Shown piece by piece: positions 13,692-56,187 of a DNA stretch of 64,000 nucleotides. The translations under genes were made by a program, and so were the position numbers. Source of the stretch: Candidatus Micrarchaeota archaeon (GTDB lineage: Archaea > Micrarchaeota > Micrarchaeia > Burarchaeales > JAKAKT01). Under the pieces are notes generated by a model that was not told the origin of the DNA, made no database searches, and saw only the letters and a program-made list of their open reading frames with translations. The stretch is taken from assembly GCA_041305385.1 (NCBI GenBank), contig JBFYLO010000011.1, forward strand, positions 8,577 to 72,576, in the 5' to 3' direction. Each line of letters opens with the position of its first letter. Position 1 is the stretch's first letter.

Positions 13692-13940
13692 GTGAAAACT
13701 AATATATTGGGCGTAATCTCAGACCCAACCCGTTTCTCAATCCTCTCAGCTCTTTCGAACTACGAGCGATGCGCATGCGGAATCCCCACTCTTGTCAAGA
13801 AATCCCAGCCCGCAGTCTCCCAGCACCTGGCTGTTCTTAAGTCAGTGGGCTTAGTCGTCATGAGGCGAGACGGGGCGAGGAGGATGTACTCGCTGACTCC
13901 GAAGGCGAAGAGGGTCTTAAGGGACGTCTCAAAGTGGTGA
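13692..13940 (+). CDS. arsR: ArsR-family transcriptional regulator
   Basis: GTG start. HTH is LGVISDPTRFSILSAL...CACGIPTLVKKSQPAVSQHLAVLKSVGLV. TATA TAATATAAAT lies ~25 bp upstream, suggesting a leaderless transcript. Confidence 0.75.
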   Translation: MKTNILGVISDPTRFSILSALSNYERCACGIPTLVKKSQPAVSQHLAVLKSVGLVVMRRDGARRMYSLTPKAKRVLRDVSKW

Positions 13941-13944
13941 CTGA

Positions 13945-14178
13945 ATGAAAATCGAAGTCTTCGGAAGCGGTTGTGCGAAATGCAAGGAACTCGAAAGAAG
14001 AACCAGGGAGGCAGTTGCCAAAGCCGGGCTTAAGGCGGAAGTCGAGCACGTCTACGATTTGGGCAAGATTGTCGAGAAAGGCATTTTCTCGACCCCTGCA
14101 ATCACAGTTGACGGCAAACTGCTGGTTTCCGGAAGAGTTCCCGAGGTTTCCGAACTAATCTCTTTGCTGAAGAAGTGA
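13945..14178 (+). CDS. Thioredoxin-fold protein (redox-active disulfide protein, CxxC = CAKC)
   Basis: MKIEVFGSGCAKCKEL...TPAITVDGKLLVSG. This small thioredoxin-like protein is typically paired with an ArsP/DUF318 permease. Confidence 0.6.
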   Translation: MKIEVFGSGCAKCKELERRTREAVAKAGLKAEVEHVYDLGKIVEKGIFSTPAITVDGKLLVSGRVPEVSELISLLKK

Positions 14179-14179
14179 G

Positions 14180-15292
14180 TTGATGAACGACAAATACCTG
14201 TTCGCACTGTTCGCAACAGTTTTCCTGTTCGCCTACCTGTTGCCTGCTGAGGAGAGCTGGCCCGAGTCTCCGATAACCGGCGGGCTTGCGTTTCTTCATG
14301 AATACGCGAAATTCCACATGCTCACCGGGCTTTTGCCGGCGTTTTTCATCGCCGGGGCCATTGCGTCGCTCATCAAGAAAGAGCTGGTCCTGAAATACCT
14401 GGGCTCGAAAACCAGCAAGCCCGTCTCCTACGGTGTTGCCGCGGTTTCAGGCTCGGTTTTAGCAGTATGCTCATGCACAATCCTGCCGCTCTTCGCCGGA
14501 ATATGGAAGAAAGGCGCAGGACTAGGCCCCGCAATCGCGTTCCTCTTCTCAGGCCCGGCAATCAACGTTGCAGCAATATTCCTGACCGCCTCAGTGCTTG
14601 GCTTTCAAATCGGCCTCGCCAGAGGGGTTGCAGCCATTTTCCTCTCAATAGTCATCGGCCTGTTGATGGCTTTCATTTTTTCAAAAGAGGACAAAGCTCG
14701 GGGAGAACTGGTTTCGGAGGCAAAGTCTGGACTCCCCCTAAGCACTGCAGTTGTTTTCATAGCCTTGCAGGTCCTCTTTCTCGTGGCCAATGGCCTAGCA
14801 CTGGATTTCTCCATGAAACTGAGCCTTTTCGCCATAATACTCCTCTCAGTTGCCTATATCGCCTGGTTCCGGCTTCCCCGTGAATACGCAAAATCATGGC
14901 TAGATGAAACGTGGTCTCTCTCGAAAACGATGCTCCCGGTTCTCTTCGCGGGAGTTTTCATCGCCGGGCTGGTCCAAGCAATACTGCCAGCGGAACTAGT
15001 TTCATATTATGTTGGCGGGAATTCATTTACAGCGAACATACTCGCCTCTATCTTCGGTGCGCTCATGTATTTTTGCACCTTGACCGAAGTCCCGATAGTC
15101 CAGATGTTCGTTTCCAAGGGAATGGGTTCTGGTCCATCCCTTGCGCTACTGCTTGCAGGCCCGTCGCTCTCGCTTCCGTCAATGTTAGTGCTTAATCGGG
15201 TTTTAGGGGCAAAGAAGACAATTGCGTATGCATTGTTCGTCATTCTGTTCTCCGCATTAGCCGGAGTTACCTTTGGGTGGATTAATGGTTGA
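14180..15292 (+). CDS. DUF318/ArsP-family permease (putative organoarsenical efflux permease)
   Basis: About 8-10 TM helices and a conserved AVCSCTILPLFAG (CSC motif as in ArsP TPFCSCS). It is located downstream of arsR and the thioredoxin-like gene. Confidence 0.6.
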   Translation: MMNDKYLFALFATVFLFAYLLPAEESWPESPITGGLAFLHEYAKFHMLTGLLPAFFIAGAIASLIKKELVLKYLGSKTSKPVSYGVAAVSGSVLAVCSCTILPLFAGIWKKGAGLGPAIAFLFSGPAINVAAIFLTASVLGFQIGLARGVAAIFLSIVIGLLMAFIFSKEDKARGELVSEAKSGLPLSTAVVFIALQVLFLVANGLALDFSMKLSLFAIILLSVAYIAWFRLPREYAKSWLDETWSLSKTMLPVLFAGVFIAGLVQAILPAELVSYYVGGNSFTANILASIFGALMYFCTLTEVPIVQMFVSKGMGSGPSLALLLAGPSLSLPSMLVLNRVLGAKKTIAYALFVILFSALAGVTFGWING

Positions 15293-35582: not shown

Positions 35583-36362
35583 ATGGTTTCGAAGAAGAAA
35601 ACCCCGGCTTTGTTCATCGGGCACGGTTCACCGATGAACGCGATTTCGAACAGCGAGTTCACAAGGACCCTTTCGCACCTCGGCCACAGGCTGCCGAAGC
35701 CCAAGGCAATTCTCGTCATCTCCTCCCATTGGCTTACGAAGGGCACGTTTGTAACCTGCAACGAGCATCCGAAAACCATCCACGATTTCCTGAATTTTCC
35801 CGATGAGCTGTACTCACTTCAATACCCTGCCTGCGGCAATCCGAAACTCGCCAAGCAATTGGCCGATTCCTCAAAAGGCTCAATCTTCTGCTCGCCGGAC
35901 TGGGGCCTCGACCACGCAGCCTGGTCTATGCTCAGGCACATCTACCCGAAAGCGGATGTTCCTGTTCTAGAATTGAGCCTCAATGTTGAAAAACCTCCGG
36001 AATACCACTACAAACTTGCAAGCAAGCTCGCTCCTTTTAGAAAAGAAGGAGTCATGATAATCGGCACTGGCAACATGGTCCACAACCTCTGGCACATGCG
36101 GAGGGACTCTCACGCGCCACCTTACAGATGGGCAAAGCACTTCGACGAGGTCTTGAGGGAAAAACTATTAAAATGCAAGCACAAGGACCTCGTAAATTAC
36201 TCTAGATTGGGCGAGGCTTCCACTCTCGCAATACCCAACAAAGACCACTACCTGCCCATGCTCTACATTCTCGGGCTGCAGGAGAAGGGCGAGAAGCTCG
36301 AGTTCGTTTACGAGGGAATCCAGAACGGCTCGGTGTCCATGAGGAGCTTCATGATTTCATGA
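35583..36362 (+). CDS. ygiD: 4,5-DOPA-dioxygenase-extradiol-like (YgiD / LigB-type class III extradiol dioxygenase)
   Basis: PALFIGHGSPMN, SSHW, TIHDF, GNMVHNL and HYLPMLYILG match YgiD throughout. Confidence 0.8.
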   Translation: MVSKKKTPALFIGHGSPMNAISNSEFTRTLSHLGHRLPKPKAILVISSHWLTKGTFVTCNEHPKTIHDFLNFPDELYSLQYPACGNPKLAKQLADSSKGSIFCSPDWGLDHAAWSMLRHIYPKADVPVLELSLNVEKPPEYHYKLASKLAPFRKEGVMIIGTGNMVHNLWHMRRDSHAPPYRWAKHFDEVLREKLLKCKHKDLVNYSRLGEASTLAIPNKDHYLPMLYILGLQEKGEKLEFVYEGIQNGSVSMRSFMIS

Positions 36363-36437
36363 GTCAATTGCGCGAAAAGGGAAAAGCCTCTCTTTAGCTG
36401 AAATTAGGGTCCACTTAGTTTTTAGGGGGCACGGACG

Positions 36438-36498
36438 CTTGGTGGGAAGCGCTCTGCCTGACTGAGGAGAGGGCGTTTCCGCGGAAACAAGGCGCGCC
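36438..36498. repeat. Left copy of a ~65-bp imperfect direct repeat bracketing the HEPN/MNT cassette
   Basis: GGTGGGAAGCGCTCTGCCTGACTGAGGAGAGGGCGTTTCCGCGGAAAC... Its counterpart is at 37531-37597 (GAGTGGAAAGTGCTCTGCCTGACCGCCGAAGGAGACTGCATTTCCTAGGAAT...). The shared core is GCTCTGCCTGAC, and each copy has an internal palindrome (GTTTCCGCGGAAAC vs TTCCTAGGAA). Confidence 0.45.
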
Positions 36499-36933
36499 TT
36501 ACTTTTTCAGGAGCTTCTCCCTTATCCTCTGCACGAACTTCGTGGCATTTTCAAGTGCGCGCCTTGCCTCGTCATCTCCTACGCTGCCAATGGCTTCCCC
36601 ATACATCACATCGTGCCTTCTCACCCTGTAATTGTCAAACATCCTGTGTGGCCCGCCGCTCTCATCGGGCATTACTGCAGAGCAAAACTTCACCACGGTG
36701 ACATGGTGCGCTTCAGATAATGGTGCGTACCCCTTGGCAGCCATCAGCGCGCGCCCGGCGGACAGCATGGCGTTGTAGGCGATGGCAAGCGCCCAATCGG
36801 GGTTCCCCCCTTTCAGGTTGTCATTTGCCGCCTTCAGGTCCTTTTGTGCAACAGAAATCAGGCTTTGCGCCTTCTCCGGGTCAGGCTCCACCTTTTTTAC
36901 CATGCGATCTTTCAACAAGTCCGACAAATTCAT
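36499..36933 (-). CDS. HEPN-domain protein (toxin component of a HEPN/MNT pair)
   Basis: HEPN fold helices with a conserved R..H-like region (RHDVMYG). It is positioned immediately downstream of, and overlapping, the nucleotidyltransferase gene. Confidence 0.7.
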   Translation of the reverse strand: MNLSDLLKDRMVKKVEPDPEKAQSLISVAQKDLKAANDNLKGGNPDWALAIAYNAMLSAGRALMAAKGYAPLSEAHHVTVVKFCSAVMPDESGGPHRMFDNYRVRRHDVMYGEAIGSVGDDEARRALENATKFVQRIREKLLKK

Positions 36934-37486
36934 CGTAATCGCCCTCCAGCCATGCCACGCCCTTTTTCACGATGTCTCGAAGAAAGGGGCTTCCGTCGCG
37001 AAGCTTCTTTTGGAAGTCGCCCCAGCTCCAGTGAATGTAATTGACCTCCCTGGAGATTCTCCCACCTGCCTGGAACATGCGCCGCGAAAGCTCCCCATCA
37101 TCGCAGTCCCCGATAACCATCACGTCAATGTCGCTTCCAGCTGCTTCCTTCCCGCTTGCCATGCTCCCGAAGACAAAGGCGTACCTGACAGCCGCCAGCT
37201 TTGCAAGCGCCACCTTCAGCTCTCCGAAAGCGCCGTCAGTCTTGAGGTAAAGCCCGCGCATTTCGGGGTATACCGGAGACCTTCTGTCTGGATAAAAAAA
37301 GACCTGTCTCCCCTTCTTTTCCCTTTTCAGGAGGCCCATCCATTCAAAAAGCGCAAGCTCGCGAGCTGCTTCTGATGGAGAGACGCCTGCCCTCCTTGCA
37401 ACCTCCCGAAGGTGCAACCCCTCCTGGAAAAGGGCGACCCCCAGTACCTTGGCCCTGGCAGAGGAGCCGAGCAGTTTTTCAAGCAT
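36881..37486 (-). CDS. Minimal nucleotidyltransferase (MNT) with N-terminal wHTH (antitoxin component of a HEPN/MNT pair)
   Basis: NTase motif GSMASGKEAAGSDIDVMVI (GS...DxD) and an N-terminal HTH GLHLREVARRAGVSPSEAAREL. It overlaps the HEPN gene by 53 nt. Confidence 0.7.
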   Translation of the reverse strand: MLEKLLGSSARAKVLGVALFQEGLHLREVARRAGVSPSEAARELALFEWMGLLKREKKGRQVFFYPDRRSPVYPEMRGLYLKTDGAFGELKVALAKLAAVRYAFVFGSMASGKEAAGSDIDVMVIGDCDDGELSRRMFQAGGRISREVNYIHWSWGDFQKKLRDGSPFLRDIVKKGVAWLEGDYDEFVGLVERSHGKKGGA

Positions 37487-37530
37487 GTTCTTTATTTAGA
37501 CACAATTGTCCTTTTAAAGTTAACGATATT

Positions 37531-37597
37531 GGCCGAGTGGAAAGTGCTCTGCCTGACCGCCGAAGGAGACTGCATTTCCTAGGAATTCGGCAAACGC
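37531..37597. repeat. Right copy of the direct repeat bracketing the HEPN/MNT cassette
   Basis: See the left copy at 36438-36498: about 70% identity over ~65 bp in the same orientation. Confidence 0.45.
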
Positions 37598-37980
37598 TAT
37601 CTGTTCGACTTAGATTTTTTTAAAAGGGGTTGCGCCATCATAAATCCAGAATAGATGACGCCTAACAAAATTATCGCTTCTAGAGGACCATACAATGGAT
37701 AATACAAAAAAAAGTAACTTCTTGGTTCATAATTGCAGCAGCAGGGAGATTCTGAGGCTTTCCGCGGGCATGGCAGTTTGTCAGCCCCTTTTTCGCATTC
37801 AACTATCGAATCGACTCTCTCTTCGCACCATCGCTCACATTCTGGGCCAATCATGCACTGTAAATTACTAGTTGAACCAGCACTGGAATTATGCAAAAAC
37901 ACCAGAACAGAATTCAGAAATATGAACATGGCCAATGTCAGCAAAGCAAGCTTCCAGTTCAGATAATGCGTCAGATGCAC
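37597..37980 (-). CDS. Cys-rich small membrane protein, hypothetical
   Basis: Two terminal TM helices flank a Cys-rich loop (CMIGPECERWCEERVDSIVECEKGADKLPCPRKASESPCCC). It lies in an AT-rich stretch. Confidence 0.35.
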   Translation of the reverse strand: MHLTHYLNWKLALLTLAMFIFLNSVLVFLHNSSAGSTSNLQCMIGPECERWCEERVDSIVECEKGADKLPCPRKASESPCCCNYEPRSYFFLYYPLYGPLEAIILLGVIYSGFMMAQPLLKKSKSNR

Positions 37981-55011: not shown

Positions 55012-56187
55012 ATGCTCGAGTACGTGCTCGCATTCCTTGGGCTCTACTCCGTGGTGTTCTACTTCCTGCTCTACCTGACGGAATCTGAGAATGTCAGGGA
55101 GGACCCGAAGCCCAAGGGAACGCCGACGGTTTCGGTAATCATTCCCGCCTACAATGAGGAGAAATCCATCGGGAAAACCATTGAGTCGATACTCGCCCTC
55201 GATTACCCCAAGAAAAAACTCGAGGTAATCGTGGTTAACGACGGCTCAAAAGACAGGACGAGCGAAATAGCTAAAAGATACCCCGTAAAGCTAATTGAAA
55301 AGAAAAACTCGGGCAAGGCGAACTCAATCAACGTTGCCCTCGGGCAGGCGAGGGGCGAGCTGGTTGCAATCATGGATGCGGACTCCTACGTCTCAAAAGG
55401 TGCGCTGCTGAAAATGGTCGGGTATTTCGAGGACCCGGAAGTTGCGGCAGTCACTGCGGCCATGAAGGTCTGGGAGCCGAAAACACTGGTCCAGAAGATG
55501 CAAAAGGGCGAATACCTGATAAACGCATTTTTCAAAAAACTCCAAAGCTTCATTGATGGCATTTCCGTGACCCCGGGTCCTTTTTCAATTTATAAGCGGG
55601 CGGTGCTTCTGGAGCTGGGAGGATTCGATGAGCACACGATAACTGAAGACCAGGAAATCGCCCTCAGAATCCAGTCAAGGAACCTGAGAATCGAGAACTC
55701 CATCAACGCCGAGGTTTTCACCGATGTTCCCTCGAATTTGAGGTCCCTTTTCAAGCAGAGGAGGAGGTGGTACTTAGGCTATCTCCAGAACATCTGGAAG
55801 CACAAATCCCTATTCAGCCCGAAATATGGCGACTTCGGAATGTTTGTCATGCCCCTGGCCGCGGTCCTTCTAATCCTCTCTGTGCTCTCGCTGTTCATTG
55901 CCTACGTCCCCAAGTCCCTTGACCTCAGCCTGAGGCTCGACCCCTCAGCCCTCACTTTCTTTTACCTGGAACTCACCCCGACCCGGGTCGTGTTCCTGTT
56001 CATTTTCGCCATAAACGCCCTGGCTTTTTACTTCACATTGAGGAACACGCGCGAATACGGGTTCCTCGGAAACTTTTTATCGCTGATTGCTGTATCCTCA
56101 TTGATGCTCCTGCTCTGGATAGTGGTCCTCGCCGAGCAAATCGCAAACCTCTTGAGGGGCTTCAGCCCCACCTGGAGAGGCGAATGA
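55012..56187 (+). CDS. Processive family-2 glycosyltransferase (cellulose/chitin/PNAG-synthase-like, QxxRW)
   Basis: VSVIIPAYNEE, DGSKDRT, DAD, the processive GT2 motif QRRRW (KQRRRWYLG), an N-terminal TM and four C-terminal TM helices. Confidence 0.75.
   Translation: MLEYVLAFLGLYSVVFYFLLYLTESENVREDPKPKGTPTVSVIIPAYNEEKSIGKTIESILALDYPKKKLEVIVVNDGSKDRTSEIAKRYPVKLIEKKNSGKANSINVALGQARGELVAIMDADSYVSKGALLKMVGYFEDPEVAAVTAAMKVWEPKTLVQKMQKGEYLINAFFKKLQSFIDGISVTPGPFSIYKRAVLLELGGFDEHTITEDQEIALRIQSRNLRIENSINAEVFTDVPSNLRSLFKQRRRWYLGYLQNIWKHKSLFSPKYGDFGMFVMPLAAVLLILSVLSLFIAYVPKSLDLSLRLDPSALTFFYLELTPTRVVFLFIFAINALAFYFTLRNTREYGFLGNFLSLIAVSSLMLLLWIVVLAEQIANLLRGFSPTWRGE

Follow-up and report, generated by a model that had tools for sequence, protein, structure and literature searches.

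Minimal mobile elements (MMEs), such as those of Neisseria, are self-contained units that are swapped between conserved flanks without a dedicated recombinase in cis. The DPANN archaea have tiny genomes, and the gain and loss of their accessory and defence genes are poorly understood. Integrons and CALINs (clusters of attC sites lacking integron integrases) have been reported in archaeal metagenome-assembled genomes (MAGs), and toxin-antitoxin (TA) functions account for 10.5% of the annotated cassette proteins (PMC9668308). Here we analyzed a 64,000-nt stretch of a Candidatus Micrarchaeota contig (JBFYLO010000011.1; hereafter the window) in which a TA gene pair, encoding a winged helix-turn-helix (wHTH) minimal nucleotidyltransferase (MNT) antitoxin and a HEPN toxin, lies between two copies of a short repeat. 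The TA pair itself is ordinary, and the novelty of the locus is the repeated element and its tie to gene cassettes. The pattern suggests that cassettes may be shuffled here by a system distinct from both canonical integrons and structured RNAs, and we tentatively favor the view that the elements may act as cassette-boundary recombination substrates for the gain, loss and exchange of such units.

The repeats and the element family

A first reading of the sequence had proposed that imperfect repeats in the same orientation flank the TA pair, and the alignment bore this out. Smith-Waterman comparison of positions 36442-36486 with positions 37537-37585, in the same orientation, gave 37 identical columns out of 49 and a score of 23.5, and the repeat is considered real because this score is above that of every one of 2,972 random pairs of window segments (mean 8.4, sd 1.5, maximum 17.5). 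The two copies, A and B (Table 1), are about 70-76% identical, and their likeness continues on both sides of a core in which the 12-mer GCTCTGCCTGAC is found exactly only at 36451 and 37546 of the window and a longer stretch matches at 19 of 21 nt. A third core match, with one mismatch at 55068, lies within a coding open reading frame (ORF) and was discarded as due to chance, and the signal that the repeat may continue into the final codons of the HEPN gene and of the neighboring ORF127, both of which end in ...LLKK, was too weak to be claimed.

Copy A is a complete short form of the element, made up of GGCGCGCC, the palindrome GTTTCCGCGGAAAC (36476-36489), a spacer and the block GTCAGGCAGAGCGCTTCCCAC, followed by CAAGCGTCC, and it adjoins the HEPN stop codon (36499-36501) directly on its 3' side, as originally predicted. 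Copy B, which carries the palindrome TTCCTAGGAA (37576-37585), begins just past the promoter at 51 nt upstream of the MNT ATG, and not at the about 45 nt first given, and the ORF127 stop codon falls within its 5' end. The features thus follow one another in the order ORF127, copy B, TA block and copy A.

By sequence comparison, the repeats best fit a dispersed intergenic element, about 75-85 nt in length and confined to this lineage, of which they are diverged copies. In gene orientation, GGYGCGCC stands at the upstream stop codon or overlaps it. Next come a palindrome of the form TTTCC-N2-3-GGAAA, a spacer that varies from 12 to 25 nt and the conserved block GTCAGGCAGAGCRCTTYCCAC-CAAGCGGAC; a G(G/A)(T/A)CTGATGCA tail is optional, and some contigs have extra hairpin modules. 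The search for further instances of the core, which the original prediction had recommended for the genome, returned only the two copies when made in the window, and a metagenome scan with a degenerate 21-mer core added a single contig, L067. An nhmmer profile recognized seven copies with E values from 1e-11 to 1e-20, two in the window, three in contig L003 and two in L067, whereas in unrelated loci of archaea, bacteria and viruses, 1.19 Mb in all, no match fell below E=0.5. The two profile matches in the window are just those flanking the TA pair, and a match in contig L101 was not counted, as it is the same DNA as copy A. More divergent copies, missed by the profile and recognized by eye, are present in contig L001; common to these are the TTTCC-NN-GGAA palindrome, GCAGTCT and CCCAAGCGGAC, and they are prolonged by hairpin chains.

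Of the seven copies with a known upstream context, six have the stop codon of a co-oriented ORF 0-30 nt upstream. Furthermore, two complete copies bracket a 376-aa ORF in L067, and a two-ORF unit of L001 is enclosed by two of the by-eye copies, which are 94.7% identical to each other. Relatedness between the window organism and an element-bearing contig could be gauged from a single operon, encoding an ArsR regulator, a thioredoxin-like protein and an ArsP-type permease, which is syntenic between the window (13704-14605) and L067 (2701-3529) and shows 54-57% amino acid identity. One of the L067 elements (L067a) is 84% identical to copy B over 50 nt, with an identical 22-nt block and a scrambled spacer between palindrome and block. 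The element is better conserved than the syntenic proteins of the two organisms, which suggests either a strong selection on two sequence blocks or a recent spread of the element.

The family also bears on the proposal that the repeats are a classical att duplication, i.e. attL and attR sites with a crossover core left by an integrase that inserted a TA-carrying element. The presence of direct repeats bracketing a portable block and the shared core described above would agree with such an event. Nevertheless, the modest identity of the copies, which extends to both sides of the core, is not that of an att duplication, and the element brackets unrelated ORFs elsewhere. Moreover, copy B is nearer to L067a (80%) than to copy A (70%), which rules out a duplication by this particular insertion. 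Scans of the window and of L001, its companion contig L002 and L003 revealed no tRNA or tmRNA that could serve as an att site, no integrase was detected among 30 window ORFs, and the 1-kb block carries no recombinase. Taken together, these data largely refute the att duplication, which we regard as very unlikely.

Long forms of the element occur at L001 3430-3680 and L003 56-130 and consist of overlapping hairpin chains, GGAC[hairpin]GTCC-ATTTTT[hairpin]AAAAATA-GGAC-GGTCTGA(G/T)GC. They are 88% identical across two samples, resemble the REP and BIME sequences of bacteria (repetitive extragenic palindromic sequences and bacterial interspersed mosaic elements, respectively), and contain T5/A5 tracts that are similar to bidirectional archaeal terminators; contigs L002 and L003 break inside such forms. 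A reading of the ...GGACGGTCTGA(G/T)GC tail as part of a C/D-box small RNA (sRNA) was dropped because the elements contain no C box. In contig L001, positions 1086-1155 are C/D-box sRNA-like (C box ATGATGA, D box CTGA, terminal GCC/GGC stem; Rfam sR1 26.7 bits, below the gathering score), and on the 3' side they end in GGACGGTCTGAGGC, a sequence similar to the long-form tail. Four perfect hairpins and a long-range closing stem, ATAAGGTGCGAC/GTCGCACCTTAT, occupy about 185 nt of the same contig (3716-3900), a region that has no Rfam match and is possibly an undescribed noncoding RNA.

The portable TA block and its junctions

The identification of the gene pair as a HEPN/MNT module whose genes overlap by 53 nt (36881-36933) agreed with both the Pfam domains and the ORF coordinates. 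The HEPN product matches PF05168 (E=3.8e-10), and the MNT product matches Polbeta PF18765 (E=3.2e-7) and NTP_transf_2 PF01909 (E=4.7e-6), all of them above the Pfam cut-offs, and a HEPN-domain gene adjoins a minimal nucleotidyltransferase gene, as is characteristic of these modules. The nucleotidyltransferase motif GS-x10-DID of MNT is intact (FGSMASGKEAAGSDIDVMV) and fits the consensus hG[GS]x9-13Dh[DE], and the N terminus is a winged-helix region with weak matches to ArsR/IclR-type HTH domains. The NCBIfam MntA model matched MNT with 28.4 bits, the cut-off being 60, and of the Rx4-6H RNase motif of HEPN proteins an RVRRH stretch is all that is visible. Sequence searches found no PDB relative, and exact-protein look-ups with the window MNT and HEPN products gave no recorded match; the closest named homologues of MNT belong to Candidatus Micrarchaeota MAGs.

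By way of two proteins that are 86% identical to MNT, the TA pair was found to recur among other genes in contigs L001/L002 (JGI and Logan) and L003 (Logan). When analyzed by blastn, the window segment 37529-36491 was 86.8% identical to L001 over 1,039 nt, and segment 37525-36496 was 87.4% identical to L003 over 1,030 nt. Beyond this block, the window shares with L001 and L003 neither alignable sequence nor neighbor genes, the block being surrounded by genes for CorA, small ORFs and a Fic protein in L001 and by genes for a P-type ATPase and a beta-helix protein in L003. These two contexts are not fully independent of each other, since L001 and L003 have a common hairpin-rich stretch upstream of the block. 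In the comparisons with the window, the first and second codon positions were 90-95% identical and the third positions 76-83%, and the HEPN product, with 88% amino acid identity to its L003 homologue, also shows its highest divergence at third positions, which indicates that the TA genes are under purifying selection. Neutral orthologous flanks would be expected to be still alignable, yet they are not. The pair thus behaves as a unit, as had been supposed, and its boundaries at the repeats are sharp.

The edges of the block coincide with the inner edges of the window repeats: it opens about 10 nt before the TATA box (TCGG...CGTTAAC) and closes with the stop codon. Its promoter consists of a BRE-like (TFB recognition element) CGTTAAC and the TATA box TTTAAAA (37512-37518), both of which are kept in the window, L001 and L003. 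From its sequence, the block would be a minimal self-sufficient expression unit. More distant TA homologues from other Micrarchaeota (49-53% amino acid identity, contigs L068-L073) have neither the element nor bracketing repeats, indicating that the element is not part of the TA operon itself.

A conserved hairpin pair, absent from the window, is located upstream of the TA block in L001 (1300-1380) and L003 (400-475). Its stems are fully compensated (GGAGAGC-CAAT-GCTCTCC vs AGAGGAGC-AGCA-GCTCCTCT; fold z=-4.48 in L003), and it is a candidate for a small structured RNA or a terminator.

The 3' end of copy B is truncated at ...GCACTTTCCAC, without CAAGCGGAC, and the first bases of the block, TCGG, come directly next. 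The uninterrupted copy L067a (L067 80-160) matches copy B through ...CCAC and then continues with -CAAGCGGAC, and copy A continues as ...CCAC-CAAGCGTCC, with L067a and copy A being 90% identical over 30 nt spanning the junction. Hence, the order at the locus is left part (B), TA block, left part (A) and right part (A), as would be expected if an element had recombined with another one carried by a cassette; this order might result from a small deletion as well.

We infer from these observations a model in which the element, placed 3' of co-oriented ORFs, would separate small accessory-gene units, one of them being the HEPN-MNT pair with its own promoter. Recombination at or between element copies would insert, delete or exchange these self-contained units, either by homology-facilitated exchange via the conserved 20-22-nt block or by a recombinase acting in trans, with a logic like that of an integron cassette array and a different kind of site. 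The model predicts an empty-site junction, ...GCACTTTCCAC|CAAGCGTCCGTGCC or ...GGTCAGGCAGAGCACTTTCCAC|CAAGCGTCCGTGCCCCC, and an excised or circular junction ...GCGCTTCCCAC|TCGGCCAATATCGTTAAC. In its most specific form, the locus would represent an undescribed DPANN cassette system in which self-expressing units (TA pairs, small membrane proteins and others) are exchanged at a sequence-defined site of about 80 nt (TTTCC-NN-GGAAA plus GTCAGGCAGAGCRCTTYCCACCAAGCGGAC) by a recombinase encoded elsewhere, i.e. an integron analogue with a non-attC site, and in this form we consider it unlikely.

Several observations weigh against exchange at the element. The junctions vary, being ...CCAC|TCGG in the window and ...GCGGACA|TCGG in L001, where the partial element upstream of the block ends 10 nt further along the consensus, so that the break is not at one fixed nucleotide; in L003 there is no adjacent upstream element. 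Of the flanking repeats that the original prediction expected with the cassette in related genomes, the upstream one is thus missing or partial in these contigs, and a family element lies directly downstream in all three contexts. The similarity among these downstream elements (53-70%; 53% between copy A and L003d) does not exceed that among random family members, which indicates that, unlike an attC site, the element does not move with its cassette. Both patterns fit a looser homology-based exchange or repeated rearrangement. No integrase, recombinase or transposase domain was found in the 30 window ORFs or in 8 ORFs of the related loci (L001, L003 and L067), and the family is small, about 7-10 copies in four organisms, which makes the statistics on position and orientation thin. 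The location of most copies immediately 3' of a co-oriented ORF is likewise a point for the RNA-level role considered below. Finally, the collections contained no syntenic relative of the locus, and hence no true empty site. A scan of genome contigs for relatives of the adjacent dioxygenase reached no more than 56% identity, with most matches from Bathyarchaeia and bacterial MAGs, and the protein database gave the source genome (100%) followed by matches of at most 57%, the extra contig L101 being 100% identical to the window. Relatives of the neighboring MscL protein (Iainarchaeum, 83%), tried as a synteny anchor, were not syntenic.

Structure of the element and its possible roles

The repeats had also been interpreted as paralogous structured RNA elements with co-varying hairpins. 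Both palindromes are present as described, but their differences were not confirmed as structural covariation, since the GC to TA change sits at the palindrome center, which would be the loop of any hairpin and not its stem. Variants of the center recur in the family (CGCG in copy A and L003a; CTAG in copy B, L067b and L001 E1), and two L003 copies lack the 5' half of the palindrome. When folded as single-stranded DNA or RNA, on either strand, the copies did not form more stable structures than dinucleotide-shuffled sequences (z from -1.64 to +0.18), their minimum free energy structures differed, and RNAalifold with six copies yielded a consensus of -1.5 kcal/mol with two compensatory pairs. 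Searches of Rfam gave no match in the window at the gathering score; with E<=10, region 36300-37700 yielded nothing above chance, and with E<=1 the related loci, including L067 and two contigs with ORF127 homologues (L106 and L107), yielded nothing relevant.

The main rival to recombination at the element is that the repeat is a conserved 3'-untranslated region (UTR) module, involved in RNA stability, processing or termination or giving rise to a small RNA, and that the TA pair merely lies between two carriers of it. The orientation of the copies and the conservation of the sequence blocks beyond the protein level would agree with such a module, as would the terminator-like hairpins with T5/A5 tracts of the long forms in L001 and L003 and one possible compensatory pair between the window copies (GGAAAT-GC/GCA vs GGAAAC-GC/GCG). 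Nevertheless, neither the folding data nor the Rfam searches reveal a conserved structure, the presence of two copies among the dozens of genes of the window argues against a general terminator, and the truncation of copy B exactly at the edge of the TA block is left unexplained. We therefore regard an RNA-level role as rather unlikely.

Folding also bears on whether the locus is the remnant of a canonical integron (a CALIN), with the repeats as attC sites and the TA pair as an integron cassette. The alternation of ORFs and repeats in one orientation, with repeats abutting or overlapping stop codons, and the fact that TA cassettes are typical of chromosomal integrons would agree with the integron-cassette-like insertion considered in the original prediction. 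However, as single-stranded DNA the copies fold at -10 to -12.6 kcal/mol (z from -1.05 to +0.18 vs shuffles), which is not the long imperfect hairpin of attC sites, and inspection of both strands of copy A, L067a and L067b showed no paired R'' (RYYYAAC) and R' (GTTRRRY) cores. The GTTAAC at the left edge of the cassette lies in the portable block and not in the repeat. Since, in addition, no IntI-like gene was found among the 30 window ORFs and 8 ORFs of the related loci, the downstream element does not accompany the cassette, and conservation resides in primary sequence blocks rather than in structure, a canonical integron remnant is very improbable.

A dyad symmetry that is maintained at a center unable to pair fits duplex recognition better than a hairpin, and it speaks for a further alternative, that the TTCC-NN-GGAA palindromes (TTCCNNGGAA) are operators or upstream activating sequences bound as duplex DNA by the wHTH domain of MNT or by another dimeric regulator. 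In contrast to what would be expected from such a role, the loci L001 and L003, whose wHTH-MNT proteins are 86% identical, have no such palindrome upstream of their promoters, the element accompanies non-TA genes too, and no gene that copy A could regulate lies downstream of it. Autoregulation by wHTH-MNT could plausibly act through a perfect 8-bp palindrome, ACAATTGT, which lies between the TATA box and the MNT ATG (37494-37501, minus strand) and is kept in L001 and L003 as in the window; given the absence of TTCC-NN-GGAA upstream of the close homologues, it is a more likely operator than the element palindrome. Protein binding as the function of the element is accordingly a highly unlikely explanation.

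No terminal inverted repeats or flanking duplications, which would point to miniature inverted-repeat transposable elements, were seen in complete copies of the element. BLAST of the locus against plasmid and phage collections gave no match, and pattern scans of viral contigs gave none or chance matches only.

Genomic setting and comparison with known systems

Table 1. Features of the HEPN/MNT locus (positions in the window)
Feature	Position	Strand	Details and basis
Element copy A	36422-36498	minus	nhmmer E=2.8e-14 and 9.9e-14; alignment with copy B
HEPN toxin gene	36499-36933	minus	144 aa; Pfam PF05168
wHTH-MNT antitoxin gene	36881-37486	minus	201 aa; Pfam Polbeta/NTP_transf_2 and HTH matches
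Minimal archaeal promoter in the cassette (putative)	37487-37529	minus	Alignment and blastn block edge; assigned from the archaeal consensus
Portable TA block (minimal promoter, both genes, stop codon)	36491-37529	minus	1,039 bp; blastn vs L001/L002 and L003
Element copy B	37537-37610	minus	nhmmer E=6.7e-15; compared with the uninterrupted L067 copy
ORF127, small Cys-rich membrane protein	37597-37980	minus	ORF list; second unit followed by an element copy

The homologues of MNT and of MscL, the latter being closest to Iainarchaeum and Micrarchaeota proteins, indicate that the window is part of a DPANN archaeal chromosome, and its other genes are mostly housekeeping ones such as those for DnaJ, CysRS, RNase HII and NADH dehydrogenase. 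ORF127 (Table 1) is a real gene, as shown by three homologues of 117-122 aa (E=1.7e-12, 1.2e-11 and 4.9e-4), with which it forms a very rare protein family. The element was found in none of the other contexts of these homologues, although L106 ends 29 nt past the gene; L108 has no bracketing repeats. A 680-nt ENA contig with an ORF127 homologue (L107) carries an unrelated 59-nt direct repeat at 12-70 and 622-680 (92% identical, spacing 610 nt), which could mark another cassette, a tandem array or a circular molecule.

On its other side, the cassette adjoins a convergent gene for a 4,5-DOPA extradiol dioxygenase (35583-36362, plus strand), with no relative above 57% among 5.8 billion proteins besides the source genome. 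Its best matches include Bathyarchaeia, Promethearchaeota and bacterial MAGs, a spread that suggests a probable horizontal acquisition, and the 35.5-38 kb stretch may be a small variable island. A T5 tract at 36419-36423 (plus strand), 57 nt past the dioxygenase stop codon, is a probable intrinsic terminator of this gene and explains why the minus strand is rich in A immediately past copy A. The sequence to the left of copy A, CCCCCTAAAAAC, which was considered as a degenerate copy of the TA promoter, is better read as this terminator.

If the element marks the edges of portable, self-expressing units, it would provide a testable handle on gene flux in DPANN archaea, and the cassette-and-site logic would extend beyond canonical integrons. 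Should it be a 3'-UTR module instead, it would represent a new archaeal RNA motif.

When compared with described systems, the gene pair agrees with HEPN-MNT (type VII) TA modules in its MNT-to-HEPN gene order, overlapping ORFs, GSx10DxD nucleotidyltransferase motif and HEPN domain, and differs from them in the N-terminal wHTH domain of MNT. Nothing in that family accounts for the flanking elements, and its distant homologues are devoid of them.

Integron arrays, especially those of sedentary chromosomal integrons with species-specific repeats such as Vibrio cholerae repeats, and the archaeal integrons and CALINs (Ghaly et al. 2022, PMC9668308), share with this locus the small, co-oriented, mostly one- or two-gene units with a repeat at the stop codon, the presence of a TA module among the units, the occurrence of the same unit in different contexts and the similarity of the repeats within a lineage. 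In contrast to integrons, there are here no AAC/GTT cores, no imperfect hairpin and no repeat that travels with the cassette, no IntI was found in the ORFs searched, and the locus comprises two units only, amid mostly housekeeping chromosomal genes.

The REP/BIME sequences of bacteria and their RAYT proteins (REP-associated tyrosine transposases) are similar in that they involve short, lineage-specific extragenic elements located just past stop codons, at which assemblies break, and the long forms of L001 and L003 are hairpin chains as well. The window copies, in contrast, combine a palindrome of 10-14 bp with a non-palindromic block, all copies have the orientation of the ORFs they follow instead of alternating, and there are two of them per 64 kb, whereas REPs have imperfect palindromes of about 35 nt and a high copy number. 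No RAYT-like gene turned up, although no search was aimed at it. REPs are not known to enclose portable cassettes.

The Neisseria MMEs resemble this locus in the exchange of self-contained units between conserved flanks. Their flanks are conserved genes, whereas here they would be 80-nt repeats with only 20-22 nt of uninterrupted identity.

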